Source: Candidatus Multivoradales bacterium
GTDB lineage: Bacteria; Acidobacteriota; Thermoanaerobaculia; Multivoradales; J023
Direction of reading: 5' to 3'
Assembly (NCBI GenBank): GCA_965248925.1
Contig: CBDFLE010000006.1
Coordinates: forward strand, 2,432,001-2,496,000
Length of the DNA: 64,000 bases
A program made the translations under genes and the position numbers. A model generated the notes under the pieces. That model was not told the origin of the DNA and ran no database searches. It was given only the letters and a program-made list of their open reading frames with translations. This document shows, one piece after another, positions 2,281 to 30,193 of the stretch; the stretch's first letter is position 1; each line of letters opens with the position of its first letter.

Positions 2281-2311
2281 ATCCCCGGCTGCTTGAGCTT
2301 CGCAGCCGGCC

Positions 2312-4947: not shown

Positions 4948-5363
4948 ATAGCTACTTCTGCTCGCTCAAATACTCCGGGAACCGATTTGTCGGATTGAGA
5001 GTCCAAACAGCTATGCAACGGAACCAACTGAAGGATGAAGACATGCATCGAAGATTCTGCCTGACTACCGTATCTCTCCTGCTCTTGACCTGCCTGGCCA
5101 CGGCCCCACTCCTCGCCCAATGCGACAACAATCCGATCGCCATCGACGACGAAGTGCTGCTCGCCGCCACTCCAGTGCTGATCGACGTGCTGGCCAATGA
5201 CCAAGAGCCCGACGGCGAGGCCCTCAGCCTGACGGTCCTCTCGACCACTTGTCCACTGACCTTCGAGGTGCTTTTTGATGTCGTCCGGCTGACCCCGACC
5301 CCAGACCTCCTGACCTACCCCTCCTAACCCTCTGAAAACACAGGACCGCCCCTCAGAGGTGGT

Positions 5364-7805: not shown

Positions 7806-8014
7806 GAAAAAGGGTATGTCAGGAGTTCTGGACCCCGGCGGTGCGAACGGCTTGCACGGTGACCTACCGAATCGAAGATGAGTCGCAGAATGTAGCCACG
7901 GCCACTATCGAGGTGACCCCGAACGGACCCTTATTTGCCGACGGCTTCGAGACCGGGAATAGCTCGCAGTGGACCGAAACTTGCGCCAGCGCCAGCTGCT
8001 AGGGGAGAACAATC

Positions 8015-11000
8015 ATGCGAATTAGACCTCTCAGCCTCATCCTTCTCGGCCTCTGCATCGCCCTGCCGCTGACCGCACAACTCCCCCCAAGCCATCAGCG
8101 CGGAGTGACCGCCGACACTGCCTACCAAATCGGCGACCTGGATCAGATAAATCTTTTCAACGGCAGCCTAACGGTATCTCTGCCGATCGGAATCACCTAC
8201 CCCGTCGGCCCGTCGCTGAGCTTCAGCCTGACCGCCTCGTACAGCTCCGGTGGCTGGGAGTACGATGAGAATCACCAATGTCAAGACATCAATCCACCCT
8301 TCGCGCTGCGTACCTACAGCCTGCCGATCCAGGATCTCAAGACGCAGGCCGGCTTCGGCTGGAGAGTCAGCCTCGGAGAGCTGATCGCACCACGTAACAG
8401 TCCGACGACAACGCCTGAGATTTACGTCGATCCAAGTGGCGGCGAGCACAGGTTTTATACCGAGCTGCATCCCGGCGGTTTTCCAGCGACACCGCAGCCC
8501 AGCACCTGGTTCACCAACGACAGTACCTATTTGCGTCTACGCAAGCGCAATCCGGGGGTGTGCGAGCTGCCGTCTGGCACCTTTGTCGATCAGAGCTGCT
8601 ACACGGTAGAATTTTCTGGCGGCGAGTTGCATGAGTTCCATAACTACGCCTCCGTCGGCGATCTCTGGCGCCTGACTCGGATGGAGGATCGCTTCGGCAA
8701 TTGGATCAATGTGCGCTATGCCAACGATGGCGACTGGACATTGACCGACAGCCAAGGGCGCACTCACACGGTGGACTTTGTCGGTGGCAGAGTCGCCACC
8801 GTGAGGCTCGAAGCCTTCGGCAGCCAAAGCAACTCGACCTTCCTCTTTCAGTACCGCACCGAGACCCTCGAACGGCAGTTCGGTTTCCGCCCCGGCTGCG
8901 TGCCGATAGCCGAGCACACCCTCACCACCCAGGTGCTCGACCGGGTGGTGTTGCCCGATGGTTCGTTCTACGAGATGGACTACCTGACCGTCGACAACCT
9001 GCTCTCGGGCGGCTTGTCGAAGCTGCGCCTGCCCACCGGCGGCGCCTACGGCTACGACTACCAGCTCTTCCCCTTCCAGACCCAGCTGGCCGACCTCTTC
9101 CACGCTCCCGATTGGGGCACGGTGGCGCGGGGAGTCAAGAGCAAGCATCTCTTCCTCGACGACGGCGACACCACCCCCTACGCCACCTGGAGCTACACCT
9201 ACGACACCGCAAATCCGCAAGCCCCCGGCGATCCGCTGGGCCACCCCTGCTTCCACTCGATGAAAGTGACTGATCCGCTGGGCTTCGAGACGGTGAGCTA
9301 TTTCTCCACCGTTGGCGCCAACAATCGCTGGTCCTACGGCCTGCCCTACACCTACTGCGATCCCATCAGTGGCAGCTTCTCAGAAGCCGGCCCCTTCCTT
9401 TCCCAAGAACTCTTCAACGCTGGCGGAACCAAGCTCCGCTCGATCTTCGTTGAGTTCGACAGCGATGGCCGCGACGCCGGCAACTACAACGAGAAGGCCC
9501 ACCGCTTGCGCTATCGCAAGGAGACCTTCCACGACGACGGCGGCAAGTTCCGCGAAGTCACCTTCTCGGACTTCGATGGCCTGGGCCACTTCCGCACCAT
9601 GACCACCGGCGGCAACTTCGGCGCTGCTGACGTCCGCACCAGCAGCACCACCTACAACGCCAACAGCGGCACCTACATCATCGCCAACCCCGACGACAGC
9701 TCGATTGATCCGGCAACCGATTTCGTGCTGCCAAGCCACAACGCACGCTGGATCTTGGAGACCTGGGACGAGCAGTCGGTGAGCGAAGGCGGGACCACCG
9801 AGAAAGCCGAGTTCTGCTTCAGTAGCACCACCGGCTTCCTCGAACGCCGCCGCCAGCTGGCTGGCAGCAGCCGTCAGAGCCGCGACGTGGTGAGCCTCCT
9901 CACCTCGACCGACGGCTTCGTCACCGGCGAGCGGGTCTATGGCGGCGACACCCAGAACCTCGGCACCGGCTCCTTGTGCGGCCTCGGCTTGTCCGGCCCT
10001 ACTTACCGCACCGACCACGTCTACGCCAGCGGCAGCCTGCGCAAGTCGACGGCGGTGGACTGCACAGGCACCGCGATCCTCACCCTGGCCGACTACGACA
10101 TCGACTCAGACACCGGCCTGGTGGCCACCAGCCGCGACGCGGCCGGCCTGGGCACCAGCTTCACTTACGATCGCTTGGGCCGCTTGACCGGCCAGCGCCC
10201 GGCCGAGCTGGGCTGGACCCAGTGGACCTACACCCTGCCCACCACCGCCAACCCCAGTCTTGCGCCCAAGCTCACCGAGCAACAGTGCCAGCCCTTCCAG
10301 ACCTCCTGCAGCGGCACCGATCTGATGAGCTTCCGCGAGCACCGCTACGACGGCCTCGGCCGGCGGCTGCAACAGACCGTGCGCATCCCCGTCGCCAACG
10401 CTGGCCAGACCGAGCTCTGGCATCGCTACACAACCTGGAACCCCCGTCACTGGAAGACGGACGAGTCGGTGTGGACCACCGCCTCCGCGGCCGGCGAGAG
10501 CCGGCGCACGACCTACATCGCCTACGATCGCTTCGGCCGCCCCGGCCGGGTCAAGCCGCCAGAACAGCCGGCGACCTTCTTCACCTACCAAGGCGACCGG
10601 GTGCAGACCCGGCGCTTCAAAGTGCAGCTGACCAGTGGCCAGCAAGACACCCACGTCACCGAGATCATGGACGGCCAGGGCCGTCTGGCCGAGGTCTGCG
10701 AGGGCAGTTCCGCCCCCTGGTCAGGGAGCTGTGGCGGTGGCGGTCTGCTGACTCGCTACTCATATGACGATGGTGGCAGACTGACCAAAGTGTGCCAGAA
10801 CCTCGCCGGCTCGACCTGCGGCCAGACCCGCTTGTTCGACTATGACGGTCGCGGCTTCCTACTCTCCGAGACCCATCCCGAGATCGGCCCCTCGGGCAAT
10901 GGCCGCAGCGATTACCGCTATGACGCCGGCGGCAACGCCACCTCCAAAGATCTGATCGGCAGCACCGCCTTCGATCTGAGCTTCGATTTCGACGCCGCCG

Positions 11001-13059: not shown

Positions 13060-13671
13060 ATGAGTGATGAACTCTGTCGATTTCTTTCTGGCTCTGCAGT
13101 GCTCTTGCTTTGCTTGGCTTGCACAACAGATCGATATTCAACCAAAGCGAGAACGGCTGGCCGGGGGCCGCTCGAGATCTACCAGGAGCAAGATCATCCC
13201 TTGGGCGACGAGACGGCGTCCGTTAACGGGCCAAGGGCCGACTCTGAGCAAGGGAAAAACATTCAGGCGATTGGGCTCGAGCTCACGTCCTGCTATGGCT
13301 ATTGCCCAGAGTTCACGGCCCTCTTCTGCGCAGATGGTTCTGCGTGGTATTGCGGCAGAGCAAACACGAATCCTTTGGGGTGCCACTCTGGATCTGTGAC
13401 GTTAGACGAATATCGTATAGTTGCCGCTGCTATGGACGATATTGGATATTTTGAGATGAATCATACTTATGTTGCATTAGAGACCGACGAGTCTTCGGTG
13501 TTGGTGTTTGGTAAACGCTACAACAAGATAAAAATGATTCGAGACTACGCAGAGAGTGGTCCTCCCCGCCTGTGGTTGTTGGAATTCCTTCTCGGTGCGA
13601 TGGTCGATCGAATCCACTGGAGTCCGAGTGATGTCACAGGATTAGATTTGGAGCGTTGTTCTTCGCCGTAG
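13060..13671 (+). CDS. lipoprotein, putative cognate immunity (DUF6438-like)
   Basis: lipobox LLLCLAC; IGLELTSCYGYCPEFTALFCADGSAWYCG resembles DUF6438; directly after toxin; paralog at 19298. Confidence 0.75.
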   Translation: MSDELCRFLSGSAVLLLCLACTTDRYSTKARTAGRGPLEIYQEQDHPLGDETASVNGPRADSEQGKNIQAIGLELTSCYGYCPEFTALFCADGSAWYCGRANTNPLGCHSGSVTLDEYRIVAAAMDDIGYFEMNHTYVALETDESSVLVFGKRYNKIKMIRDYAESGPPRLWLLEFLLGAMVDRIHWSPSDVTGLDLERCSSP

Positions 13672-13980
13672 TTGGTTGGAACCGCTGGTGCTAGAGGCGG
13701 AGTCGATGGCGTGCCCGACTCTCGTGCCGTCAGACTACGACAGCGGGCTCAAAGCCCATAGGTGTATTCGGCCCGCCCCGAGGTGTTCGATCCTTCCAAC
13801 TCTTTGTTCTTGGCCGTGAGGCACCTCGTCCCTTACCTGGTCAAGACCAGGAGATCATAGGGCCCTCGGCCGATTCAACAGATGCAGGTCTCAGCGCACA
13901 ACCCGCCCGACGCCTCGAATCCCAGCTCAAAACGGAGTGAGAGCGGGCGCCTGTTTTCCTGTGGCCTTGGTTATACCTGG

Positions 13981-15366
13981 TACGACGATTTCGGCAACAT
14001 CCAGCAGCTATCAACACCCGGTTTCGCGGCTCTCAACCTCAACCCCAGCGCCACCACCAACCGCCTCGGCCTCTCAGGCGCTCGATACGACGCAGCCGGC
14101 AACTTGACCGACATCACAATCGGCAGCGAGAGCTTCGACTACGCCTTCGACGGCGCCACCATGATGAAGCATTTGCGCTCGAACACCGATCAAGCGCGGG
14201 TCTTCATCTACAACGCCAGCGACGAGCGGATCCTCACCTTCGACTGCTTCGGCCCCGGCGCCACCAGCACCTGCACCACCCAGCCCGCCAGCCTCACCTG
14301 GACCCTGCGTGGCTTACAGAACGAGGTTCTGCGAGTCTACGATCAGCCAGCTGGAGGTTCATTCGGCTGGACCCGAGACTATGTGCACCGAGGCGGCCAG
14401 ACGCTAGCCACCATCGAGCCCGACGGCAGCGGAGGTGAGCTGACTTCGCACCTGCACCTTGATCACCTGGGCACCCCCCTGCAGATCACGCGTGGTGGTC
14501 AGCAGGTGGCATTGCACAACTACTACCCCTTTGGTCAAGAGGCGACCAGCGCGGGGGCTGACGAGATTCAGCTGAAGTTTACCGGGCATGAGCGGGACAA
14601 GACGGGGACGGGAGTGAGGAGCGAGCTGGACTACATGCATGCTCGGTACTGTAGCCCGGTGCTAGGGCGGTTCCTGAGCGTTGATCCGGCGAAGTCTTCC
14701 GTTTTGACCCAGAGCACAACCTGGAACCGGTACTCCTACGTTTCCAACAATCCGCTGCGCTACAATGATCCTTCGGGTCTACGCCAGAACCCAGTAACTG
14801 GAAGAAAGGGAATCAGTCCAAGGCCCGCCAGCGCCGTTCTTGGGAGAATCAGGAGCAATGACAACAATCGCAGAGTTGGACTCTTTGGAATGACGCGCCA
14901 TTTCGCAGATGGGACAGAGAGATTTCACCCTGGCATCGACATCAATGCACCAGCCGGAACCCGGTTGTTTGCGGCAGAAGGGGGGACAGTCAGCCGTCGG
15001 CGAAATGCTCTCGCAGGTAACCAGATCGTAATCAAGACTTCTTCTGGAACCCAGTTGTTCTACTCTCATCTTGATAGCTTTGCGCCCGGACTGAAGAGCG
15101 GAGCAACAGTAGTTGAGGGTGAAATCATCGGAACAGCAGGGACCACAGGGAACGCAATGGGTATTCTGAGTCAAGAGGAGCATCTACACCTCACTGTTAA
15201 GAATCCAAAAGGCGTGAGGGTAGATCCGCTAATCTGGCTCAATGACCCTTTTGCAGCCGACCCCAGAATCCACTCAGAACCAGCATCCACACCATGTCAA
15301 TGCAGTTCAGGTCCGCCTAATGTTCCGGGTATGCTGATACAGCTCTATCTCAGAGGGCCATCGTGA
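13981..15366 (+). CDS. orphan Rhs-CT cassette 1: partial core + M23 peptidase toxin
   Basis: DNA homology to main Rhs from ~11708; after NDPSG: HPGIDINAP, YSHL, HLHL M23/LytM zinc motifs; no proper N-terminus. Confidence 0.87.
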   Translation, partial: YDDFGNIQQLSTPGFAALNLNPSATTNRLGLSGARYDAAGNLTDITIGSESFDYAFDGATMMKHLRSNTDQARVFIYNASDERILTFDCFGPGATSTCTTQPASLTWTLRGLQNEVLRVYDQPAGGSFGWTRDYVHRGGQTLATIEPDGSGGELTSHLHLDHLGTPLQITRGGQQVALHNYYPFGQEATSAGADEIQLKFTGHERDKTGTGVRSELDYMHARYCSPVLGRFLSVDPAKSSVLTQSTTWNRYSYVSNNPLRYNDPSGLRQNPVTGRKGISPRPASAVLGRIRSNDNNRRVGLFGMTRHFADGTERFHPGIDINAPAGTRLFAAEGGTVSRRRNALAGNQIVIKTSSGTQLFYSHLDSFAPGLKSGATVVEGEIIGTAGTTGNAMGILSQEEHLHLTVKNPKGVRVDPLIWLNDPFAADPRIHSEPASTPCQCSSGPPNVPGMLIQLYLRGPS

Positions 15367-15959
15367 ATCTTGTAATAGCAATCGTCCTTGCGTCCTTTAG
15401 TTGCTCGCAGCTCACGGGCAATTCGACCCTGCCAAACTTTCTGGAGATCGTTCAGCTCTCTGAGATGCTACTCGTTCCTCCCAATCGTCTGATCTTCGAA
15501 CTGGGCTCGCCGGAGGCGGTTTTCCTCGAAGGTGCAGACTCAGAAGGGCCACCAACACCTCAAGACGGTCTAGAGCTTCGCTACTCGATCATTCTCCGTG
15601 TTGGGAAACACTATCCGGCCACGGCGTGGTTTCACCTCGACGGACAATCTTTCCTTGTGAGGGGGATCCATCTTGATTTCCCTGGCGCAAAGCCCGAACT
15701 GGCGGAGCTGGAGCTGGCAGCTGGCGGCCCGAAGCGCCTAGTTGAGCACGTGGTGATCTGGGATGAGGGTGAGCTGGATGGGTGGTTAAGCAAATGCCAC
15801 CATTCCGGAGGCCCCATTCAAAGCTGGGTTTTTCAGGATCTTGGACTTCAAATTCGCCTAGAAGACAGTATTGGCTCAGAGAAGTCGGCCGTGGGAGGGA
15901 TCTCGTTCGTGGCGGAGATCAAGTCTGGCGATCGCAGCTTTCCACCGTGCAAAGAATAA
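15363..15959 (+). CDS. putative lipoprotein immunity to M23 toxin
   Basis: GTGA overlap with toxin stop; lipobox-like LASFSC; paralog at 25561. Confidence 0.75.
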   Translation: MNLVIAIVLASFSCSQLTGNSTLPNFLEIVQLSEMLLVPPNRLIFELGSPEAVFLEGADSEGPPTPQDGLELRYSIILRVGKHYPATAWFHLDGQSFLVRGIHLDFPGAKPELAELELAAGGPKRLVEHVVIWDEGELDGWLSKCHHSGGPIQSWVFQDLGLQIRLEDSIGSEKSAVGGISFVAEIKSGDRSFPPCKE

Positions 15960-16044: not shown

Positions 16045-17935
16045 CGACATTCAGAATCCCCTGGCCCCCGAGCCCGGCTCCCTCGATGTCAAACTCTCCG
16101 AGAGCTTCCGCTACACCGGTCGCCAGGGGCTGATGTCGGAGAAGCAGACTCGCTACCAATTCTTCGCCGGCAACTACGCCTTCACCACCGGCTTCGCCTT
16201 CGACACCCAGGGCAATCTGTCACAGCTCGATTACCCCAGCTGTCAGCACGCCGACGGTGGCTGCGCCACCAACGATCCGCAGCGCACGGTGAATTTCAAC
16301 TACGAGAAGGGTATGCTGAGGTCCGTGCCTGGATTCGCCAACAACCTCACCTACCAGAGCGGTGGCATGCTGCACCAGCTCACCCACGGCGATGGTGTGG
16401 TCGACACCCAAGAAGTCAGCAGCTCCAACGGCCTCGCCCGGCCGCACCAGCTGACCACCTCCGCGGGCTGGAGCACCGACATCTTTTCCTACGACGGAGC
16501 CGGCAACATCTCGGCCATCGGCAACTTGGCCTACCGTTATGACCGCCTCGGCAGATTAATCTCTGGCCAGACCTCGGTCGGTGCCACCCTCTTCACCCAG
16601 ACCGCGAGCTTCGACAATTTCGGCAATATCCAGCAGCTGTCGACGCCAGGTTTCTCAGCTCTCAACCTCAACCCCAGCGCCACCACTAACCGCCTCGGCC
16701 TCTCAGGCGCCCAGTACGACGCTGCCGGCAATCTGACCGACATCACAATCGGCAGCGAGAGCTTCGATTATGCCTTCGACGGTGCCAACATGATGAAGCA
16801 CCTGCGCTCGAACACCGATCAAGCACGGGTCTACATCTACAACGCAGAGGACGAGCGGATCCTCACCTTCGACTGCTTCGGCCCCGGCGCCACCAGCACC
16901 TGCACCACCCAACCAGCCAGCCTCACCTGGACTTTGCGCGGGCTCGGCAACGAGGTCCTGCGGGTCTACGATCAGCCAGCTGGCGGCGCCTTCAGCTGGA
17001 GCCGAGATTATGTGCACCGAGGCGGCCAGCCGCTAGCCACCATCGAGCCCGATGGCAGCGGAGGTGAGCTGACGTCGCACCTGCACCTTGATCATTTGGG
17101 TACACCTCGGCAGATCACCCGAGGCGGACAGCAGGTGGCGCTCCACAACTACTACCCGTTTGGTCAGGAAGCGACCAGCGCGGGTGCTGACGAGATCCAG
17201 CTGAAATTCACTGGTCATGAGCGGGACAAGACCGGGACCGGGGCAAGGAGCGAGCTGGACTACATGCATGCGCGGCATTGCAGCCCGGTAGTAGGGAGGT
17301 TCCTGAGTGTTGATCCAGTAGTTGGAGCTACACGGCAACCTCAGTCCTGGAACCGCTATGCCTACGTGACTAACAATCCGCTGAACCTCGTCGACCCTAA
17401 CGGTCTCGAAGCCAAATGCGTTACAACTACCCACGAAGATGGTTCTCAGGATATCGTCTGCGGCGAAAGGATTGAGGTGGTCGATGGCACGGTGGAAGAG
17501 GTCGACTCGGAAGAGCCTGCCCAGGGTTTTCCGACCCTTGTTGCATTTATCGAAGTTGCCAGTCTCCCTGCCGTTACACCCCTCTCAACTCGAGATCGAA
17601 TTCTGAGTTCTGTGCCGATTGATGGTATGGACTATGCTCGCTGTGTTCGCAAGAATAGGGCTAAACCAGTAGCAGCTCTCGTTGCCCTGGGCTCCGGAGT
17701 ACCAAAGCGCTTGGTTCCGCCGTTTCGCGTTCCAAATCCCAAGCAACCTTTGACCAATCCTGCCAGGGCCTTCGTGGGCTCTCCAATTAAGCGAGCATTC
17801 CCCAGTTCACCACTTGCCAGAAGAGTCTCTGGAAGGATCAGGATCGGCGGCAGGTTCGTTTCCAGGATCGCCACGCCCTTAACTCTCGCAGAGGGCTACT
17901 ACGACATTGCAGTCTTGGGCGCCTGCTCGTTTTGA
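16045..17935 (+). CDS. orphan Rhs-CT cassette 2: partial core + unknown toxin tip
   Basis: homology to main Rhs from 11143; core ends NNPLNLVDPNG; tip is acidic then basic/hydrophobic. Confidence 0.85.
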
Positions 17936-17960
17936 CATACAAGAACTGAGGAGAATTCCT

Positions 17961-18401
17961 GTGAACTCGTGGACGGCAACAGATTTCTTGCTTCTGGGCA
18001 TAGCTCTGGCGGCACTTGGAAAAGTATACGAAAAGGTGCGGTCGAAGAAACTCCCCGTTGTAACAGAGGATGATTTTCTGGCACACTTTCAAGGCAGCCT
18101 GGCCCAGGAACATACAGCCAATATTCTTCGAGAAAGGAGAAACATTGCGCGAACACTCGGCGTTCCCGTAGAACGACTTTCCCCCACGGCAACTTTCTCA
18201 AGCATCATAAAGAGAGTGAATTATCTTGGAAGCGCAAATCTCGCATATTCCGACTTGGTAGAGGACTTGCAGGATAATCTAATACAAGCTAACATCGATA
18301 TAGATCCCAGCGAGTTGGAAACTGTTGGGGCGTTCATTCAGGCGACTATCCAATCATTGGCGCGAGCGTCCAAGAGCGGAGCTGTTCAGGTGCCACCCTA
18401 G
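17961..18401 (+). CDS. putative immunity protein, N-terminal TM + acyl-carrier-protein-like domain
   Basis: GAGGAG RBS, GTG start; FLLLGIALAALG TM; IARTLGVPVERLSPTATF..LETVGAFIQA resembles ACP helices. Confidence 0.65.
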   Translation: MNSWTATDFLLLGIALAALGKVYEKVRSKKLPVVTEDDFLAHFQGSLAQEHTANILRERRNIARTLGVPVERLSPTATFSSIIKRVNYLGSANLAYSDLVEDLQDNLIQANIDIDPSELETVGAFIQATIQSLARASKSGAVQVPP

Positions 18402-18434
18402 TCGAATCACATATCTTCAGTAGCTTACGCCACG

Positions 18435-19282
18435 TTGATCATTCGGGCACACCGCGGCAGATCACCCGAGGTGGACAGCAGGTGGCGTTGCACAACTACT
18501 ACCCGTTTGGTCAAGAAGCCACCAGCGCCGGGCAAGATGAGGTCGGGCTGAAGTTCACTGGGCATGAGCGGGACAAGACCGGGACTGGGGTGCGGAGTGA
18601 GCTGGATTACATGCATGCTCGGCATTGCAGCCCGGTGGTGGGGCGGTTCGTGAGTGTGGATCCGGCGAGATCGGCAGAATCCAGGGCGCCACAAAGTTGG
18701 AATCGATATAGCTACGGGCTGAATAGCCCTCTCAAGTATACTGATCCAGATGGCCGGGTTCTGAAGATAGCAAAGGACAGCAAGACGCAAAGGCGCATCG
18801 TCCCTGTGCTCGTGAGAACACTGAGAAGACCCTCGGGCCGTAAACTTGTCTCGGATCTCGCGAAGTCCGATATAGTCTTCACATTTTCTGAAGGTAAATT
18901 GAATAAGCCCGTGGACATCATCAGTTTTAGAAGAGGCCGGGCCGGCTCACTACGATTCGGTGTCAATCAGAACATGAAGCATAGCAATGGGAGGATCGTG
19001 AGCATCGATATTGTCCTGGATTCAGCGGCTATATCTGCGCATCCTATCGACACGACAGGCGTGACCACTGCAGCTCATGAATCATCTCACGGGAGCAGTA
19101 TTGCTGCCGGCCAAGCCAGTGGGTTAGTTTGGCACAAAGCCTGGGCCGAGGGGGTCAGAGGTGATCAGCCCGACAGCGCAACCGGACCAGCATCCCAAGA
19201 AGCGGCATCAGTGTTAAACGAACGTCGGGATATCAGCGCCAAGGATGCGAAGGCACTTTTGATGCAGTTCCTAACGCCGTAG
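18435..19282 (+). CDS. orphan Rhs-CT cassette 3: short core + HExxH peptidase tip paralogous to main toxin
   Basis: NSPLKYTDPDG then alignable tip (LAKSDIVF, GRIVSIDIVLD, AAHESSHG, SATGPA). Confidence 0.87.
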
Positions 19283-19297
19283 CAGAAAGGAGGAGAG

Positions 19298-19906
19298 ATG
19301 CAATACGTCATGTGCCGGACCCTACTTGTGTGCTTGCTTGCTCTTGTTATTTTTGGATGTTCTCATGGGGCGAAGCGGGATGTTATCTCTGGAGGAACTG
19401 GACCTCTTGATACCTATCATCTTGAACGCCATCCATGGGGAGACGACGCTACGATATTTGGAGGACCAAGGTCAGAATCTCTGCAAGGTCAAGGGGTGGA
19501 GGGGGTTGGCTTGGAGATGACCTCCTGCTACGGATTTTGCCCTCAGTTTACAGTAATATTCTGCGTGGATGGCACGGCCTGGTACTGTGGCAGAGCAAAC
19601 ACGGAGCCGCTAGGGTGCTACACTGGCAAGGTCCCGATCTCGGAGTTTAAAATCGTTGCTGCTGCGATGGAAGATGTCGGATTCTTCGAACTCGATCATA
19701 CTTACGCTGACCTCAAGACCGACGATTCTTCCGCGCTGGTTGCAGGGCTCAAAGAGGGAAGGGTCGTTGTAGTTAGAGACTATGCGGAGAGCGCACCTCC
19801 TCGGCTGTGGCTGCTTGAGTTTCTTCTTGGTTCAATGGTCGATCGTGTCACTTGGGATCCTATCGATGCAAAGACTGTTGACTTCAACCAATGCGACTCG
19901 GGTTAG
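19298..19906 (+). CDS. lipoprotein immunity, paralog of 13060..13671
   Basis: AGGAGG RBS; lipobox VIFGC; shared SCYG.CP.FT..FC.DG.AWYCGRANT and RDYAES.PPRLWLLEFLLG. Confidence 0.8.
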   Translation: MQYVMCRTLLVCLLALVIFGCSHGAKRDVISGGTGPLDTYHLERHPWGDDATIFGGPRSESLQGQGVEGVGLEMTSCYGFCPQFTVIFCVDGTAWYCGRANTEPLGCYTGKVPISEFKIVAAAMEDVGFFELDHTYADLKTDDSSALVAGLKEGRVVVVRDYAESAPPRLWLLEFLLGSMVDRVTWDPIDAKTVDFNQCDSG

Positions 19907-20004
19907 GAGTTTAGGGACGCGATCAAGATCGTATCGAAGGAGGCTCGTGACAATGCTTGGAACAAGAGCTAAACGCTGTCTTGTGCCCGACTAGCGTTCA
20001 GATT

Positions 20005-21746
20005 ACGCCACCAACGATCCGCAGCGCACGGTGAATTTCAACTACGAGAAGGGTATGCTCAGGTCCGTGCCTGGATTCGCCAACAACCTCACCTACCAGA
20101 GCGGCGACATGCTGCATCAGCTCACCCACAGCGATGGTGTGGTCGACACCCAACAAGTCAGCAGCTCCAACGGCCTAGCCAGGCCGCACCAGCTGACCAC
20201 CTCCGCGGGCTGGAGCAGCGGTAAGTTCTCCTACGACGGAGCCGGCAACATCTCGGCCATCGGCAACCTGGCCTACCGTTATGACCGCCTCGGCCGATTA
20301 CGCTCCGGCCAGACCTCCGTCGGCGCCACCCTCTTCACCCAGACCGCGAGCTACGACAATTTCGGCAACATCCAGCAGCTGTCGACGCCAGGTTTCTCAG
20401 CTCTCAACCTCAACCCCAGCGCCACCACCAACCGCTTCGGCCTCTCAGGCGCCCAGTACGACGCTGCCGGCAACCTGACCGACATCACGATCGGCAGCGA
20501 GAGCTTCGACTACGCCTTCGATGGCGCCAACATGATGAAGCACTTGCGCTCGAACACCGATCAAGCGCGGGTCTACATCTACAACGCCAGCGACGAGCGG
20601 ATCCTCACCTTCGACTGCTTCGGCGCCGGCGCGACCAGCACCTGCACCACCCAGCCCGCCAGTCTCACCTGGACCCTGCGCGGGCTCGGCAACGAAGTCC
20701 TGCGAGTCTACGATCAGCCGGCTGGCGGCGCCTTCAGCTGGAGTCGAGACTACGTCCATCGCGGCGGGCAACCGCTAGCCACCATCGAGCCCGACGGCAG
20801 CGGCGGCGAGATGACCTCACATCTCCATCTTGATCATTTGGGCACCCCCCGGCAGATCACCCGTGGTGGTCAGCAGGTTGCGTTGCACAACTACTACCCG
20901 TTTGGTCAGGAAGCGACCAGCGCGGCCCAGGACGAGGTCGTGCTGAAGTTTACCGGGCATGAGCGGGACAAGACGGGGACGGGGGCGAGGAGCGAGCTGG
21001 ACTACATGCATGCTCGGCATTGTAGTCCGGTGGTGGGGCGGTTCTTGAGTGTCGATCCGGCGAAGTCTGCTAAGACTGGCACACCACAAGGTTGGAATCG
21101 ATATATCTATGGTGCCAACAGCCCAATGACCTTCGTAGATTCAGACGGACTGGCACCAACTGCTGCCCAAGTGGCCTCGAGTGCCAGTGAAACGGCTAAG
21201 AAGCACATAGTTGCCGCTGCTGGGTTGGGGGGAGGATTCCACCCTGGGTTCGCCAATTTCATTGTTGGCGCTACTCTCGATGTTTTTTCGATGGGCGACG
21301 CGACCGGCGAGGCGATCGGGACAGGTGAGGGCCTTGCGGGTGCCGTAGTCTCTGACACGCTGAGAGTGGCTGCTCTTGCGGGAGGTCTTGGAGCGACCGG
21401 CAGGGCCCTTTCCCGAGGCGCAGCATCAGCGCGTACATTCCTAGGGGGCAGGCTCGTCGCCAATGAAGTATTTGTTGGGGAGATCGGCACCGCCAGAAAA
21501 CCTGTTGAGATATTTGCGAAAGTCACATTCGAAGGAAAGACTCTTCGCCTGGACAAATTGGCTATCTTCCCAAAAGGAGCTGAAAGCCTTCAGTTGGGTC
21601 CACGGCAAATCTTGGCAGCAAGGAAAGCCCTTGAAGCAGAGGCAAGGCGACTAGGGTTTACGAAAATACGGCTCACGGTGAGCCGCCTAAGCGGCGCCAA
21701 CCCAGGAAGAACTTTCGACTTAGTCATTGACCTAGTGAGGCAATAA
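20005..21746 (+). CDS. orphan Rhs-CT cassette 4: partial core + Gly/Ala-rich hydrophobic linker + unknown toxin domain
   Basis: homology to main Rhs from 11361/2; core ends NSPMTFVDSDG; tip ends GFTKIRLTVSRLSGANPGRTFDLVIDL. Confidence 0.87.
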
Positions 21747-21759
21747 GAGGCGTGTTAAA

Positions 21760-21978
21760 ATGAACTACGAGAGATTACTAACAAGGCTTCGTAGCGAAGG
21801 CAATTCCAAGATTCAATCGATGAAGATACTTGTTGAAACAACAGATATTTCCATTGACGAGGTGAAGAATGTTGTTCACAGAAGTAGGACTTGGAAGGAT
21901 GTTGAGTCTCAAGATGATAACTTTCATGACGCGCTGGAAAGATCGAGCGATTTCTTAGCTCGGGTATCCACCGACTAG
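21760..21978 (+). CDS. small cytoplasmic putative immunity protein
   Basis: 72 aa directly after CT4, GAGG RBS, low GC, no signal peptide; decayed homolog at 23709. Confidence 0.72.
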   Translation: MNYERLLTRLRSEGNSKIQSMKILVETTDISIDEVKNVVHRSRTWKDVESQDDNFHDALERSSDFLARVSTD

Positions 21979-22024
21979 GTGCTGAGAAGTGCTGCCGCCG
22001 AGAGCGTGCCACCCACCTCGGCAA

Positions 22025-23048
22025 GACCCTGCGTGGGCTCGGCAACGAAATCCTGCGAGTCTACGATCAGCCAGCTGGCGGCGCATTCGGCTGGGCCCGA
22101 GACTATGTTCATCGAGGCGCACAGCTGCTAGCCACCATCGAGCCCGACGGCAGCGGCGGCGAGATGACCTCGCACCTGCACCTTGATCATTTGGGTACGC
22201 CTCGGCAGATCACTCGGGGTGGTCAGCAGGTGGCGTTGCACAGCTACTACCCCTTTGGTCAGGAGGCGACCAGCGCGGGTGCTGATGAGATTCAGCTTAA
22301 GTTCACCGGCCATGAGCGAGACAAGACCGGAACCGGGGCGAGGAGCGAGCTGGACTATATGCACGCACGGTATTGCAGTCCGGTGCTGGGGCGGTTCTTG
22401 AGTGTCGATCCTGTAGCCAAGGGTGAGGAGAGCAGACCACAGAGCTGGAATCTGTTTTCATACGCAGGGAATAGTCCGACAAACAGACTCGATCCCGATG
22501 GTAGAAAGGATCGAAGGACAAGCCAAGAAGTAGTGCTGACGGAGGACGCGGACGTTCAGATTGCGATTTTAGAGATTCTTAGGCAGACGCTCTTAGATAG
22601 GCCGGTGCTCCAGCGTCAAGAGGCTGGCGTAGTAGTCACAGAGGATGGTCCAAATGACTTCGGGCTAGACACGGGTGGAGTAAAGACAGATGGGAACCTT
22701 ACTCAAATTACCTTTCGTCTTCGCAAGAAAGCAGACGGCGCGATCGTTGGATTGAATAACAATCGGGTAGCTGCAACGATCCATAGTCATGTAGGAACAG
22801 CTAGAGTGGTCATAGATGGGCAGAGAAAAACGTTGGCCGGAGGGATTCCCAGCCCAGCAGATCGAAGTCAAGCCAAGGCGATCGGCGTGCCAGTTCTGAT
22901 TCTCAACGGGGAGAGGAGTATCATCAAGGTCGAGTCTGTTGGAAACAGCACGCGGTCTACGGTGATCCTCTCTGGTCGAGACATGAGGAGCTACCTACAA
23001 CGAGCGCGTGCCGCTGCCGCACCGCCAACTGGAGACCTAAATGATTGA
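22025..23048 (+). CDS. orphan Rhs-CT cassette 5: partial core (5' part frameshifted) + JAB/MPN-like toxin
   Basis: core ends NSPTNRLDPDG; QEAGVVV..ATIHSH..PSPAD = JAMM-like E..HSH..SxxD. Confidence 0.8.
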
Positions 23049-23544
23049 TTCGAGAATTGTCTTTCTGGCTCTAGCTCTAGTGGCTTTCCAGTCTTGGCCT
23101 TGCTTTCTCTCCGCGACCGAGGAAGAGAGCATCGGCGACCCAGGGTGCCCTGTCAGGTTCGGTCGAGTTTATAGAAATGAGGGCGCCACCATACTGGAAG
23201 TATTACCTTCAGATCTGCCAGAAACAATCGAGATTCTCGACCAGCCAGATGGTGCCGCGATCTTCAGAGCAGAGTCCGAAGACCCCACCGCAGTCTACGG
23301 CACCTTTTTCCTAGAACCACCAGTTGCAACCAAGACAAGCTTCTTTCCGAGATCAGGACTGAGCGCAGCGACTTGGGTCACGGTAACGTCAAATATTGGT
23401 CTTGTGGAACAGATTCCAGCAGGGATCTACCGACTGAAATTACAATATATAGGTCGTCATGAAAATGGAAGCAAGATCAAAGTTTGCCTTGCAATCTCCC
23501 CGACATTTGTCGAAGACGAGGAGTCGTTATATACGTTTCACTGA
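23041..23544 (+). CDS. secreted putative immunity protein
   Basis: overlaps toxin stop; hydrophobic N-terminal signal IVFLALALVAFQSW. Confidence 0.7.
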   Translation: MIDSRIVFLALALVAFQSWPCFLSATEEESIGDPGCPVRFGRVYRNEGATILEVLPSDLPETIEILDQPDGAAIFRAESEDPTAVYGTFFLEPPVATKTSFFPRSGLSAATWVTVTSNIGLVEQIPAGIYRLKLQYIGRHENGSKIKVCLAISPTFVEDEESLYTFH

Positions 23545-23589
23545 AGCGGGGTGGCAGCAAGCACGAAGACGGAGATGCCGATCGCGGGT

Positions 23590-23885
23590 CAGAGCTTTTG
23601 GCCTGTGCTAGTCTTGAAATGAAGGCGTCAGGGGAGATCAGGAGGATATAACCAGGAAGAGCCCTCGGTCTGGTCGTTGACATTGTCAAGCAAGGGAAGC
23701 ATATCCACATGAAGGATGAAAAACTTCGGAGGCAACTCAGGGCGAAGATAAATTCAACGATTCAATCCATGAATATACTCTTCGGGACAAGTAAGTGCCT
23801 CGTTTGGCGAAGTTAAGGGCATGGTTCACAGAAGTGGAGATTGGCAAGAAGTCGAGCCTCAAGTGATAGTTCTAACGGCCATCAG
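23590..23885 (+). pseudogene. decayed copy of CT4 3' end and its immunity gene
   Basis: PGRALGLVVDIVKQ vs PGRTFDLVIDLVRQ; MKDEKLRRQLRAKINSTIQSMNIL../GEVKGMVHRSGDWQEVEPQ vs MNYERLLTRLRSEGNSKIQSMKIL..DEVKNVVHRSRTWKDVESQ, with frameshift. Confidence 0.75.
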
Positions 23886-24141
23886 AAACCGGTGTAGTTT
23901 GGCCACTTCGCTCTTTTTTCCCAAGAACGGACTATGGTCTACGGCCATAGCAAACGCTGGCGGGCGGCCTCAATGACGAAGGTGGATCAGAGGCCGGAGC
24001 ATCGAAAAGTCCAAGATTTTCGGCGTCTTGGGAACTCTGAAAGGAAGAATTCGCGCCTGACCAACTTGCATCGAGCTGAACGAACTGAACCGAGCATGTA
24101 TGGGAGGGTCCAATCTTGGCTCGCCAGTTGCGTAGAAACCC

Positions 24142-25561
24142 CTCAGTCGGTGCCACCCTCTTCACCCAGACCGCGAGCTACGACAATTTCGGCAACATCC
24201 AGCAGCTGTCGACGCCAGGTTTCTCAGCTCTCAACCTCAACCCCAGCGCCACCACCAACCGCCTCGGCCTCTCAGGCGCCCAGTACGACGCTGCCGGCAA
24301 CCTGACCGACATCACGATCGGCAGCGAGAGCTTCGACTACGCCTTCGATGGCGCCAACATGATGAAGCACTTGCGCTCGAACACCGATCAAGCGCGGGTC
24401 TACATCTACAACGCCAGCGACGAGCGGATCCTCACCTTCGACTGCTTCGGCGCCGGCGCGACCAGCACCTGCACCACCCAGCCCGCCAGTCTCACCTGGA
24501 CCCTGCGCGGGCTCGGCAACGAAGTCCTGCGAGTCTACGATCAGCCGGCTGGCGGCGCCTTCAGCTGGAGTCGAGACTACGTCCATCGCGGCGGGCAACC
24601 GCTAGCCACTATCGAGCCCGATGGCAACGGCGGCGAGATGACCTCACAGTTGCACCTTGATCATTTGGGCACTCCCCGGCAGATCACGCGTGGTGGTCAG
24701 CAGGTGGCATTGCACAACTATTACCCGTTTGGTCAAGAGGCGACCAGCGCGGGGGCTGACGAGATTCAGCTGAAGTTTACCGGGCATGAGCGGGACAAGA
24801 CGGGGACGGGAGTGAGGAGCGAGCTGGACTACATGCATGCTCGGTACTGTAGCCCGGTGCTAGGGCGGTTCCTGAGCGTTGATCCGGCGAAGTCTTCCGT
24901 TTTGACCCAGAGCACAACCTGGAACCGGTACTCCTACGTTTCCAACAATCCGCTGCGCTACAATGATCCTTCGGGTCTACGCCAGAACCCAGTGACTGGA
25001 GGCAGGGGGATCAACTCAAAACCTGCCAACGGCGTTTTTGGAAGGATCAGGAGAAATAGCTCAAACCCGAGAATCGGTCTCTTCGGGAGAACACGGCGTT
25101 TCGCAAGTGGGAAACCTCGCCCTCACTCTGGCCTCGACATCAACGCGCCTGTTGGAACCCGCTTGTTCGCGGCAGAGGGGGGAACAGTCAGTCTCCGAAC
25201 GAATGTTCTTGCTGGTAACCAGCTCGTGATCAGGACATCCTCGGGTACCCAATTGTTCTATTCTCATCTCAATGGCTTCGCACCAGGATTGAAGAACGGA
25301 GCTACCGTGCTCGAGGGTGAAGTCATCGGAGCGTCAGGCACCACGGGAAACGCAATGGGTATAGCAACTTCGGAGGAGCATCTACATTTCACAGTCAAGG
25401 GTCCTGGTGGCGTAAGAGTAGATCCGTTGATCTGGCTCAATGACCCATACGAGGCCGATCCTAGAATCTCTTCAGAGCCACCGCCTGCACCATGTCAATG
25501 CAGTACAAACCCTCCAGACCTTCAAGGAGCGCTGATCCAGCTCTATCTCCAGGAGCCATAG
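24142..25561 (+). CDS. orphan Rhs-CT cassette 6: partial core + M23 peptidase toxin (paralog of cassette 1)
   Basis: HSGLDINAP, YSHL, HLHF motifs; homology to main Rhs from ~11670. Confidence 0.87.
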
Positions 25562-26157
25562 TGAGACATTTGGCAATAATCGTCCTCGCGGCCTTTGGCT
25601 GCTCACAAATCTTGGGCCAGTCTACGTCGCCGACTAGTTTGGACATCCATCAACTCTCAGAATTGTTACTTGTACCTCCCAACCGACTGGTCTACGAGCT
25701 GGGTTCCCCAGAGTTGGTTTTTCTCGATGGAGCTGACTCAGAAGGCCCTCCAACGCCTCATGATGGTCTTGAATTTCGCTACTCGATTGTTCTCTGGGCA
25801 AAGAGGCCCTATCCGGCCACGGTGTGGGTTCACCTTGACGCAAACTCCTTTCTTGTGAAGGCGATCAACCTTGAATTCTCCGGCCCAAGACCCGAGTTAG
25901 CAGAGTTGGAGACAGCAGCTGATGCACCAAAGCGCATAGTAGAGCATGTGATGATCTGGGATGAAGGCGAGCTGGAGGGCTGGCTGAGCGAGTGCCACCA
26001 TCCTGGCGGCCCAATTCAGAGCTGGGTGTTTCAGGATCTCGGGCTTCAGGTTCTGTTGGAAGAGGGTGCTGGCTCTGAGAAGCCGGTCGTAGACCTACTC
26101 TCGTTCTCGGCGCAGATCAAGTCTGGCGGACTTAGCTTTCCACCCTGCGACGACTAA
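25561..26157 (+). CDS. lipoprotein immunity, paralog of 15363..15959
   Basis: GTG overlapping toxin TAG; lipobox LAAFGC; shared LLVPPNRL.(F/Y)ELGSPE, GGPIQSWVFQDLGLQ. Confidence 0.8.
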   Translation: MRHLAIIVLAAFGCSQILGQSTSPTSLDIHQLSELLLVPPNRLVYELGSPELVFLDGADSEGPPTPHDGLEFRYSIVLWAKRPYPATVWVHLDANSFLVKAINLEFSGPRPELAELETAADAPKRIVEHVMIWDEGELEGWLSECHHPGGPIQSWVFQDLGLQVLLEEGAGSEKPVVDLLSFSAQIKSGGLSFPPCDD

Positions 26158-26186
26158 GGGCCCGCGAAAAGACAACTTCCGAGTAC

Positions 26187-26404
26187 CGACATCCAGAATC
26201 CCCTGGCCCCCGAGCCCGGCTCCCTCGACGTCAAGCTCTCAGAGAGCTTCCGCTACACCGGTCGTCAGGGCCTGATGTCGGAGAAGCAGACCCGCTATCA
26301 GTTCTTCGCCGGCAACTACGCCTTCACCACTGGCTTTGGCTATGACACCCAGGGCAACTTGTCGCAACTCGACTACCCCGACTGCCAGCAGGCCGATGGC
26401 GGCT
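26187..26404 (+). pseudogene. truncated Rhs core fragment (cassette 7, no toxin tip)
   Basis: matches main Rhs 11143-11360 then homology stops abruptly. Confidence 0.85.
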
Positions 26405-26431
26405 TAGGGGTTCTTCGGAGGGTCAAACGAA

Positions 26432-26734
26432 GTGAAACGACTTATCCTCGTCATAACACTGCTCGCGTTTTCACTTGTAGCGTATGCCGAGCACACACCG
26501 GTTGCGGAGTGGCTGAAGACATACAACAACTCGGTCGATCAGCCCTTCTTGACTGCGGTCGAGCTGAGGGCAGAGCAAGCGCTGACTATTCTCGAACGGC
26601 TGGGTATCGAGCCCGGTAAGGCTCAGACACCTAACTCTACGTCGATACGGGCGACTGCCGATGCCTGGGAAACAACGTTCCAATCTCCCTTTCGTCGAGC
26701 TGGATGGCCAGCGGCCAGCGGAAACCGCTGGTGA
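26432..26734 (+). CDS. small secreted protein, possible orphan immunity (may be truncated)
   Basis: GGAGG RBS, GTG start, signal peptide KRLILVITLLAFSLVAYA. Confidence 0.55.
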   Translation: MKRLILVITLLAFSLVAYAEHTPVAEWLKTYNNSVDQPFLTAVELRAEQALTILERLGIEPGKAQTPNSTSIRATADAWETTFQSPFRRAGWPAASGNRW

Positions 26735-26790
26735 GATTATTCACCAGCTCGTCTGTTGGGAGACGTAGTCCCGTACGTGAGACCCGTTGG

Positions 26791-26818
26791 CAAGAAAGTC
26801 CTGAGATGGCATCCCGCC
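26791..26818 (+). repeat. 28-bp motif copy 2, originally upstream of XRE gene 29766
   Basis: identical to 2253-2280. Confidence 0.85.
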
Positions 26819-27019
26819 GACTCCGGCTACTCGCCGTCCTTCGGTAGAGTTGCCTATTCCGACGAAACTGACCAGCCATTCCGATCGAAACCGACCACTT
26901 GTCGGAGCGAAGCGACGCTGGCGCTCTCCTCAGTTGTAGGTGTCCACTTTCGCTGTAGCTGGAGCCCTCCTTCCGGTTCTTCTTCTTGGTTGATTGTATT
27001 CAAATAACCCGTCGTCGGG

Positions 27020-27123
27020 GCTGTGCGTAGCTGTGGGAAACGCGGGTGGGTGGCCGGGGGGCGTTTTCCAAGCGGCTGTGGGAATCGCAGAGCGATTTCC
27101 ACAGCCGCGGCAGCTTCCACAGT
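27020..27123. other. structured non-coding element (two hairpins in an enclosing stem) in IS21 end downstream of istB
   Basis: GGAAACGC/GCGTTTTCC hairpin; GCGGCTGTGGGAATCGC-aga-GCGATTTCCACAGCCGC hairpin; outer CTGTG..AGCTG / CAGCT..CACAG. Confidence 0.6.
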
Positions 27124-27204
27124 CCATCTTGGGTCGGGTCCGGATCGGGCCGCAGGCCCGCTGATGGGTCAGGATCGGCGATCGCTTCAGCATGCTCTTG
27201 GATC

Positions 27205-27969
27205 TCACCTTGCCTCTCGCTGGGCGGCCTTGCGAATACCGCCGGCTCTCTTCGCCCGCATGGAGTCACCGTCCACCGCGAGCTTGTAGGCGCCGTGGAC
27301 AATGCGATCGAGGATGGCGTCGGCCAAGGTCGGATCGCCGATGACCTCGTACCAGCTCTCAACCGGTAGCTGGGAGGTCACCAGCGTGGAGCGGTTGCCG
27401 TAGCGGTCCTCAAGAATCTCGAGCAGGTCGCGCCGCTCGCTGGCCCCGATCGGCGCCAGCCCCCAGTCGTCGAGGATGAGCAGGTCTGTGCGAGCATAGC
27501 TCTTGAGCAGCTTCTCGTAGCTACCATCACCCCGCGCGATGGCGAGCTGGCGAAACAGCCTCGGCACCCGCAGGTACAAAGCGGTGTAACCCTCCCGACA
27601 TGCCTTGTGCGCGAAGGCGCAGGCGAGAAAGGTCTTGCCCACCCCGGCCTTGCCGGTGATCAGCACGTTGAGATGCTCGGCGATCCACTGGCACGAGGCC
27701 AGGCGCAGGATCTGGCCTTTGTCCAGGCCCCTCTTGGCTCGCCAGTCGATGTCTTCGATGGCCGCCTGCTCGCGCAGCTTGGCTTTTCGCAACCGCGCTA
27801 TCAAGCGGCGGCTGGATCGCTCGGTCGCTTCGCGCTCGACCAGCAGCCCGAGGCGCTCTTCGAAGGAGAGCTCTGAGACATCGACCATCGACAGCTGCTC
27901 CTCAAAGGCTTTGGCCATACCGTGGAGCTTGAGCGCGGCGAGTTGATCGAGCGTCGCGTGCCTCAGCAT
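27205..27969 (-). CDS. istB: IS21 helper AAA+ ATPase
   Basis: LSFEERLGLLVERE, GKAGVGKT, LLILDDWG, TSQLP..W..IGDPTLADAILDR. Confidence 0.95.
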   Translation of the reverse strand: MLRHATLDQLAALKLHGMAKAFEEQLSMVDVSELSFEERLGLLVEREATERSSRRLIARLRKAKLREQAAIEDIDWRAKRGLDKGQILRLASCQWIAEHLNVLITGKAGVGKTFLACAFAHKACREGYTALYLRVPRLFRQLAIARGDGSYEKLLKSYARTDLLILDDWGLAPIGASERRDLLEILEDRYGNRSTLVTSQLPVESWYEVIGDPTLADAILDRIVHGAYKLAVDGDSMRAKRAGGIRKAAQREAR

Positions 27970-29537
27970 GGCGGCGTCTCCTCGCGGCGCGCGGCACTGT
28001 AGTAGCTGGCGCCGCGGACGTTGTGGTGCTCGATCGGCGCCGTCACTTCGGTGGGCTCGGGCGCTGCTTGCTGGTCCAGGCCGCTCTTCAGGATCGACTT
28101 CACGCTCTTGTAGGACAGGCCGTGAATGGCGAGCGCGCGGCGGCACGCAGCCTCCAAACGATTGGCACCATAGGTCTTGCCCAGGCGCATCAGCCCCAGA
28201 CACGAGCGAAAGCCGTGCTGAGGATGGGAGCGGTTAAGCATGATGGTCTCCACCAGTTCGGCCGTCGCCTGGCCTGTTTTCGCCGCCCAGCTGATCAGCC
28301 GTGTCGGTGTCCACTCCAGGTACGCCTGGTGCGCTTTGGGCATGTGCTCGCTCTGGGTCGTGTGCCGACCCCGACACCGATTGCGACGATGAGCAGCCAC
28401 ACGCTTGCCGCGATCGAGCACCTCCACCAGTTGCGCCGTCGCCCGCAGATCGAGCTGCTTCTTGATCAGCTGGTACGGCACACTGTAATAGTGGCCCTCG
28501 AACTCGACGTGGTAGTCCGGGGCAACGCGTACCTTCTTCCATTCGGCAAGCTCGTAGGGCTGGAGCGGCAAAGCACCCAGAGCAGGACGATCGACCTGCT
28601 CGAACAGCGCTCGGCGCGAGACGCCCAACACCTTCAGCGGACGGTCGTTAAGCTCGACCAGAAGCTTCGCGATGCTCTCGTTGAGCTCTCGCAGGCTGAA
28701 GAACTGCTGGTTACGCAGCCGGGCCAGAATCCAGCGCTCCACTTGCAATACACCGTTTTCGACCTTCGCCTTGCCTTGGGGCTTCCTCACCCGCGCCGGC
28801 ACCACCGCCACGCCGTAGTGCTCGGCCAACTCCGCGTAGGTGCGATTGATCTCCGGCTCGTAGCGGCACGGGCTGGTCACGCCGCTCTTCAGATTGTCCG
28901 GCACCACCAGCTCGCTCACCCCGCCCAGAGCCGCGAAGGTCCGCACATGAGAGCCGATCCAGTCCTCCAGGCCCTGGCTCCACGTTGATTCGGCATAGGT
29001 GTAGTTGCTCGCCCCCAGCACCGCCACGAAGATCTGCGCTTCGCGCGCTTTGCCAGTCGCCGGGTCGATCACCCTCACGGTCTGTCCGGCATAGTCGACG
29101 AACAGCTTCTCGCCCGCCCGGTAGGCTTGGCGCAGGCACACATCCAGGCGCCCTTCCCAGATCCGGTACAGCTGACAGAAGCGGCTGAAACCGTAGCCGT
29201 CAGGATGGTCCTCCCGGTACTCTTGCCACAGCAGCGACAGGGTTACGCCCTTCTTCTTCAGCTCGCCATGCACCTTGGTCCAGTCGGGCAAGGCTCGCTG
29301 ACCACCCCTCCGAAGCGGCTGCGGCCGAGGGTACAGGCGTTGCTCCAGCTCAGCGTCGCTCAAAGCTGCTACTTGCTCCCAGCTCAGGCCTTCAACCTTG
29401 GCTCGCAGCAGGTAGTTGCACACCGTCCCGTGGCCCAGCCGAACCGACCGTCCGATCTGGCGGTGCGACAGGCCATGCTGCCATTTCAGTCTCAGTACCT
29501 CGCGTATCTTGCGCATCGATGTCCTCACTCTCGGCAT
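27963..29537 (-). CDS. istA: IS21 transposase
   Basis: MRKIREVLRL HTH, GEKLFVDYAG, VPDNLKSGV, KAKVENGV, HYYSVPY. Confidence 0.95.
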   Translation of the reverse strand: MPRVRTSMRKIREVLRLKWQHGLSHRQIGRSVRLGHGTVCNYLLRAKVEGLSWEQVAALSDAELEQRLYPRPQPLRRGGQRALPDWTKVHGELKKKGVTLSLLWQEYREDHPDGYGFSRFCQLYRIWEGRLDVCLRQAYRAGEKLFVDYAGQTVRVIDPATGKAREAQIFVAVLGASNYTYAESTWSQGLEDWIGSHVRTFAALGGVSELVVPDNLKSGVTSPCRYEPEINRTYAELAEHYGVAVVPARVRKPQGKAKVENGVLQVERWILARLRNQQFFSLRELNESIAKLLVELNDRPLKVLGVSRRALFEQVDRPALGALPLQPYELAEWKKVRVAPDYHVEFEGHYYSVPYQLIKKQLDLRATAQLVEVLDRGKRVAAHRRNRCRGRHTTQSEHMPKAHQAYLEWTPTRLISWAAKTGQATAELVETIMLNRSHPQHGFRSCLGLMRLGKTYGANRLEAACRRALAIHGLSYKSVKSILKSGLDQQAAPEPTEVTAPIEHHNVRGASYYSAARREETPPC

Positions 29538-29765
29538 CCAATTCTCCTTTCAAGGAGGCTGGAATACCCCAATTGTGAGGAGCGCGCTACCGTCGAACTC
29601 CGCCGTGGCCAGGATTCCGATCCAATCTGACCACCCATTCCGATCGACCCGGAAAAGTGGTCACTTTCGATCGGAATCGATGGTCAGATTCCGTTGGAAT
29701 CACTGGTCACTTTCAATCGGAATCGGTGGTCGGTTTCCGTCGGTGCAGGCAGTAGAGTAGGCCGC

Positions 29766-30191: not shown

Positions 30192-30193
30192 AA

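Follow-up and report, generated by a model that had tools for sequence, protein, structure and literature searches.

The DNA analysed here, referred to as the window, is a stretch of 64,000 nucleotides from Candidatus Multivoradales bacterium (Acidobacteriota; assembly GCA_965248925.1, contig CBDFLE010000006.1, positions 2,432,001 to 2,496,000 of the forward strand), whose genome is assembled as 8.0 Mb in six contigs and is 96.9% complete. The window carries a classical Rhs C-terminal-displacement array, in which seven core fragments, named A to G, lie downstream of a main full-length Rhs gene and on the same strand as it. The array was compared with the main gene by BLASTN, and the main gene (8015-13033) is the reference for every core coordinate given below. 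Six of the seven fragments (A to F) reach the end of the core, at main 12414-12513, and then diverge into different C-terminal domains; G is the exception. A small open reading frame (ORF) follows each toxin tail from A to F and is, as judged from sequence, a candidate immunity gene. Cassettes D, E and F and fragment G, which close the array between a spacer (X) behind the immunity gene of cassette C and the right flank (Y), form a 6.4-kb block (20006-26404) whose order is circularly permuted. Table 1 lists the features.

The permutation is evident from the two ends of the block. G (26187-26404) matches main 11143-11360 at 92.7% identity over 218 bases, and D (20006-21110) matches main 11362-12466 at 93.0% over 1105 bases. 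The last core base in G is the T of ...GGCGGCT (26404 = main 11360), and the first core bases in D are CGCCACC, starting from 20006 = main 11362. The base between them, a G at main 11361, is absent from both; base 20005 is an A and does not match. The original prediction, made from the DNA letters and their ORFs, had the two ends abutting to within one base. This holds, although D begins at main 11362 rather than at 11361 and one core base is missing. Elsewhere in the genome, all 11 of the other core copies found by an anchor motif are continuous across the breakpoint (GGCTG[C/T]GCC). When the 3' end of a fragment starting at 11143 was placed at random under a uniform model, it fell no more than one base from one of the five other 5' boundaries in 1.2% of simulations.

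The block as a whole is flanked by the trinucleotide TTA, at 20003-20005 on the left and 26404-26406 on the right; this too had been predicted and was borne out by direct reading. Three bases can match by chance, the shared TTA being worth roughly 1/64 at fixed positions by simple arithmetic. A TTA pair around the whole block would be expected of a small target duplication, and would be unexpected had only D-E or F-G moved. Read against a target with a single TTA, the junctions correspond to the duplication of 2-3 target bases (TA or TTA) and the loss of 1-2 core bases.

A paralogous copy of the arrangement, with the counterparts of G and D still joined, is present in the same array. The DNA that begins with A and takes in the opening 218 bases of B (13981-16262) aligns with that from F to G (24179-26404) at 80% identity over 2285 columns, bases 16045-16262 of B being those that align to G. 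The alignment restarts one base later, with B 16264-17316 matching D 20006-21058 at 90.9%. Because B matches G up to 16262 and D from 16264, a D-like core is the natural continuation of G. B and G share the same core 5' boundary, main 11143, each behind homologous immunity genes, and the immunity proteins of A and F are 68% identical. A-B is thus an unbroken paralogue of F-G·D, and G and D most likely once formed a single cassette.

A unit consisting of an M23 tail, its immunity gene, a spacer and a core starting at 11143 is thus present twice at 80% identity, before two different tails, those of B and D. From its sequence, it looks like a recurrent transfer unit. G carries nine private substitutions in its 218 bases, six of which are synonymous, and this proportion suggests that G diverged while it was inside a working gene, as would fit if it arose elsewhere than in this copy of the array. 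The synonymous changes in G may thus mean that the block came from a diverged lineage. A nearest-neighbour comparison of G and D with the other paralogues was uninformative, the cores being mosaics.

Neither junction is homologous, and the entry of the block did not involve a homologous crossover in the core. Of 500 shuffles, 120 scored at least as high as the end of X against the end of G, and 497 at least as high as the start of Y against the start of D. When the block's first 80 bases were set against its last 80 in reverse complement, the score was 10, which 498 of 500 shuffles also reached. All scores of the block ends against each other, direct or inverted, and of flank against flank lay within those of the shuffles, and there is at most one base (T) of microhomology at the crossover. 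The breakpoint itself falls at the centre of a 4+4-base inverted repeat, a palindrome-like GGCG..CGCC around main 11360. Nowhere in the 8-Mb genome is there a second copy of X, of Y or of the tails of D and E; their single-copy state and the presence of two new junctions exclude a simple tandem duplication.

Both junctions were sought in the contigs of four public short-read runs. These come from one sample, possibly the source sample, and serve as a check on the assembly rather than as independent biology. The junction between G and Y is bridged by a contig of 578-579 bases (26301-26879) in all four runs. The junction between X and D is covered in all four by a 1416-base contig that reaches 30 bases into D, one base short of the rule for bridging; this is the point at which a 31-mer graph, having run into a repeat, has to break off. 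At the junctions, run X1 has depths of 9.47 and 8.85, against 9.6-9.85 for neighbouring unique sequence, as is appropriate for single-copy DNA. The assembly is sound, and the block is carried by essentially the whole population. An apparent joint from 21067 to 26188, which would skip 5120 bases, is most simply a contig of cassette F (24815-26217), whose first bases also fit D.

Table 1. Features of the Rhs array and its neighbours. Positions are those of the window; "main" denotes positions within the main Rhs gene, 8015-13033.
Feature	Position	Strand	Description
2532-bp insertion sequence	5301..7832	+	797-aa Transposase_29/HTH_29 protein at 5412-7805 (Pfam); ~180 bp upstream of main rhs start
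Main full-length Rhs gene	8015..13033	+	1672 aa; signal-peptide-like leader at N-terminus, YD repeats, Rhs-associated core
Candidate immunity gene of main toxin	13060..13671	+	DUF6438 (Pfam); paralogue of C immunity gene
Cassette A	13882..15959	+	Core 13981-14699 = main 11708-12426; Peptidase_M23 C-terminal domain; candidate immunity gene 15363-15959
Cassette B	16045..18401	+	Unbroken core 16045-17316 = main 11143-12414; own C-terminal domain; downstream ORF 17907-18401
Cassette C	18430..19906	+	Core 18430-18762 = main 12181-12513; C-terminal domain related to main one; DUF6438 immunity candidate 19298-19906
Spacer X	19907..20005	+	3' of C immunity gene; left junction at its end; no second genome copy
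Cassette D	20006..21978	+	Core 20006-21110 = main 11362-12466; unique C-terminal domain (ORF 20031-21746); 72-aa ORF 21760-21978
Cassette E	22025..23544	+	Core 22025-22411 = main 12028-12414; C-terminal domain (ORF 22164-23048); 167-aa ORF 23041-23544 with signal-like leader
Spacer before F	23545..24140	+	Decayed copy of the 72-aa ORF of D inside
Cassette F	24141..26157	+	Core 24141-24897 = main 11670-12426; Peptidase_M23 C-terminal domain (ORF 24116-25561); immunity candidate within 25492-26157; paralogue of A
Fragment G	26187..26404	+	218-base core stub = main 11143-11360; without 3' part, without toxin domain
Right flank Y	26405..26850	+	100-aa ORF 26432-26734 with signal-like leader
IS21-family element	26851..29751	-	istA 29537-27963, istB 28203-27205; 7-bp target duplication GTAGAGT; 446 bp beyond right junction

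The main Rhs protein matches PF05593 (RHS_repeat; E 2.4e-16) and TIGR03696 (E 1.1e-14), the latter being matched in D and E as well. The Rhs proteins of this genome start with a signal-peptide-like leader (window 8015-8080). No VgrG or PAAR protein was detected by Pfam among the ORFs scanned, which comprised 17 around the array and 10 in the flanks (633-4947 and 29694-35255), so that delivery may not be of type VI. The candidate immunity genes of the main toxin and of C match at 67% of positions in DNA (13228-13610 against 19463-19845). In the spacer before F, bases 23751-23868 are 70% identical to 21802-21919, which lie in the 72-aa ORF behind D; this is possibly the sign of an earlier D-like cassette upstream of F. 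Just past the right junction, the 100-aa ORF of Y is a possible orphan immunity gene.

Two highly active insertion sequences (ISs) lie near the array, both of them clear of either junction, and neither is part of the permuted block. The 2532-bp IS has 25 full-length copies in the genome, 23 of which show a 2-base duplication inside a GA-NT-C (GANTC) target. Its transposase was considered as the agent of insertion and rejected: the GA-NT-C target and the 2-base duplication are only loosely like the GATTA site, and the ends of the IS are unlike those of the block. Besides the copy here, the IS21-family element is present 20 times at full length and at least 99% identity, and must therefore have been active very recently.

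The original prediction had offered, as an alternative to mobile circles, that the break marks a site-specific hotspot. This finds no support in the present genome. At a threshold of at least 78% identity, the Rhs family of the main gene comprises 8 full-length copies, which are 94-95% identical, and 26 partial fragments. D alone among these fragments has a boundary at main 11360-11362, and none of the other 25 breaks there. The 3' part is missing from only two of the 26, namely G and a 250-base 5' stub at C6:3684990. That stub lies ~175 bp from a copy of the IS21 element. In a second Rhs family (6 full-length copies, 13 partial), none of the 13 partial fragments is 3'-truncated. In other arrays, which lie behind paralogous Rhs genes (C5:921-989 kb; C6:3491-3519 kb), all that is left of the core is its final ~200 bases (boundary at main 12213), in fragments spaced 7.5-12 kb apart.

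The best reading of these data, to which we give about an even chance of being right, is that a 6.4-kb circle, or a D-E-F-G molecule of circle length, was inserted once and without homology between the C immunity gene and the right flank. A single insertion of a circular or circle-length D-E-F-G molecule is the simplest account of breakpoints abutting exactly, and the unbroken paralogue A-B lends it indirect support. Such a circle is what recombination between two core repeats should yield as its reciprocal product. We infer the circle, its origin by recombination between cores and the order of events as follows. In the donor array, F would have been followed by an intact G·D cassette and this by E; the F-then-G·D part of that layout is seen today in the A-B pair. 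Homologous recombination between two core repeats would loop out the F-G·D-E stretch as a circle, which would then be broken inside the G·D core at main 11360/11361. The broken molecule would be joined without homology between X and Y, with 2-3 target bases (TA or TTA) duplicated and 1-2 core bases lost at the ends. The outcome would be a silent block of three toxin tails with their candidate immunity genes, together with the dead 218-base stub G. The more specific proposal, which is put forward tentatively as somewhat short of an even chance, is that the block is the scar of the long-hypothesized Rhs episomal circle, here of 6.4 kb and three cassettes, which would be the reciprocal product of a fusion between orphan and main gene and would have been recaptured non-homologously at the end of the array. 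Such recapture would be selected, in that it preserves immunity genes that the fusion would otherwise delete.

The original suggestion that cassettes move as circles has fared unevenly. The permuted order is real and fits an insertion of circle-length D-E-F-G; no circle has been seen, and the entry was not by homology. Several further results weigh against insertion of a circle. No joint from 26404 to 20006 and no empty site is present in the contigs of the four runs, although contigs drop rare forms and their silence is no refutation. Neither an empty site nor an array with F-G·D-E intact turned up in the relatives and metagenome contigs searched, and the donor arrangement can therefore only be inferred. 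No recombinase or transposase domain was found by Pfam in the ORFs of the block, and its ends carry no terminal inverted or direct repeats. A Ku gene was likewise not found in this genome (96.9% complete), and Ku-dependent end-joining was accordingly rejected as the agent. Hundreds of Rhs arrays were inspected in a wider scan, so that an abutment with a 1.2% chance could, taken alone, arise by accident. Finally, G is 88.5% identical to B, against 96.2% for the first 210 bases of D, and private changes number 9 in 218 bases of G as against 9 in 1053 of D, which could mean different histories. The local contrast in private changes is small (9 in G and 4 in D, over ~210 bases each), and because the cores are visibly mosaic from gene conversion, the divergence of G and D is weak evidence either way.

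The search for relatives gave little to compare with. A DNA search of 60 relatives returned only core matches at ~70%, and no genome of the same genus. Among 299 further genomes of the order, and in a metagenome scan, the ORF of Y found no match. The F immunity protein has only two matches, at 27%, among 300 genomes of the order, this one included, and the alignment of the A and F immunity proteins found nothing in a second metagenome scan. A search with the toxin tail of D, in which candidates of 314-1000 aa were scored, returned only the window's own protein.

Other histories could have produced the same arrangement. The exact abutment is explained equally well by a rearrangement in place, in which the array once ran C - X - F - G·D - E - Y and either D-E or F-G then moved across its neighbour through three breaks, with no circle arriving from elsewhere. 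The succession of main tail, M23 cassette and core from 11143 is mirrored by C, F and G, as follows if F originally lay next to C; the mirroring would also be explained if the M23 unit described above is a recurrent transfer unit. Such a rearrangement requires three new junctions rather than two. The spacer at 23545-24140 resembles neither X nor the spacer at 13672-13980 (scores within shuffles), leaving no trace of an old adjacency of X and F, and the TTA pair surrounds the whole D-G block and neither D-E nor F-G alone. The probability left to this rearrangement is small, if real. A coincidence would make D an ordinary 5'-truncated orphan formed by displacement, and G the stub of another cassette whose toxin part was deleted, perhaps leaving Y as its immunity gene. 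Every orphan has some 5' boundary, deletions of toxin parts are plausible, and, with ORF Y starting 27 bases further on, the right junction is roughly where the end of a toxin gene would be expected; the unlike private divergence of G and D, their unlike similarity to B and the many arrays scanned point the same way. Against this stand the 1.2% chance of the abutment, to be multiplied by roughly 1/64 for the shared TTA, and the rarity of 3'-truncated fragments: G is one of only two among the 26 of its family, yet it lies in the same array as its exact complement. Given the abutment, the TTA pair and the intact paralogue together, chance is unlikely, yet not negligible.

A longer route would begin with a tandem duplication of F-G·D-E by unequal core recombination, after which two deletions would end at the same fragile point of the core. 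Duplications of rhs genes by recombination between cores are documented, as summarized in part of a published account (PMC4927057), and the break does lie in the middle of the 4+4-base inverted repeat GGCG..CGCC. This route needs three events and leaves the TTA pair unexplained; moreover, as noted above, no other partial fragment of the family breaks at 11360-11362 and the second family has no 3'-truncated fragment. It is considered quite improbable. Misassembly deserves mention since the region is rich in repeats, with 8 full-length copies at 94-95% identity and many partial ones in the genome. Both junctions, however, join unique sequence to core rather than repeat to repeat, and both occur in contigs of all four runs, from the one sample, at single-copy depth, which makes an artefact very improbable indeed.

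If the block is indeed the scar of a captured circle, the implications reach beyond this locus. Homologous re-entry of a circle is traceless, and rare scars of the kind proposed would then be the sole genomic footprint of a common process, and could be counted across genomes. The signature to be searched for would be a 3'-truncated core stub whose end abuts the point at which another, 5'-truncated cassette of that array begins; it is countable in thousands of genomes. The gain and shuffling of cassettes in Rhs and contact-dependent growth inhibition (CDI) arrays are still explained by a model which its authors, in the part of their paper concerned, call hypothetical (PMC2935791). As a single case without relatives, the present block is suggestive: it fits the circle model and does not prove it.

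The block shares some features with the products of known mobile systems. DDE transposases make small target duplications, and the block is flanked by a 2-3-base repeat (TTA) that may be such a duplication or a chance match; unlike their insertions, it contains neither terminal inverted repeats nor a transposase gene. The array is reminiscent of integron and other recombinase cassette arrays in consisting of promoter-less cassettes that could move as circles. It differs from them in lacking end repeats and an integrase, none being detected by Pfam among the 17 array ORFs scanned (attC models were not searched).

A closer parallel is offered by the orphan Rhs toxins of Salmonella, for which Koskiniemi et al. 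in 2014 reportedly described how the cores of the main gene and of an orphan recombine, giving deletions and duplications in place. There, as is proposed here, recombination between cores reshuffles the array, and a deletion made in this way should have, as its reciprocal product, a circle like the one put forward above. Unlike the block studied here, the Salmonella system is not described as capturing excised DNA at a non-homologous site.

Circular intermediates have themselves been proposed for Rhs genes. Jackson et al. 2009 (BMC Genomics 10:584, PMC2935791) put forward a model, hypothetical by their own account, in which a core fragment is looped out between core repeats together with a tip and any genes in between, and the resulting circle returns through one homologous crossover within the core. 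Displacement and duplication-recombination models are summarized in a section of Ruhe et al. 2016 (PMC4927057), and a paper on meningococcal TpsA mentions in passing a circular-intermediate model for its cassettes (PMC3848433). For rhsA-E of E. coli K-12, a mobilome preprint (10.1101/2024.07.17.603846) reports that discordant reads gave no hint of DNA circles. In the open-access papers searched, neither a permuted block of orphans nor a direct observation of an Rhs circle came to light.

As outlined in the relevant part of the paper by Jackson et al., dissociated tips lie behind an rhs gene of full length, and a circle of core fragment, tip and intervening genes is proposed to account for them. 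The present array agrees with this, in that the unit of M23 tail, immunity gene, spacer and core from 11143 stands before two different tails, those of B and D, as the model in its published outline predicts. It departs from that outline in the manner and the place of entry. Homologous re-entry as modelled leaves no scar, whereas the entry seen here was non-homologous, with the circle, if such it was, broken in its own core and a 3'-truncated stub left behind; and the site of entry is the array's far end, not the main gene. In its general form, then, the idea of an Rhs circle is already a published hypothesis (PMC2935791, in the part cited), and what the present locus adds is a scar of non-homologous entry that would expose the circular topology of the molecule that entered.

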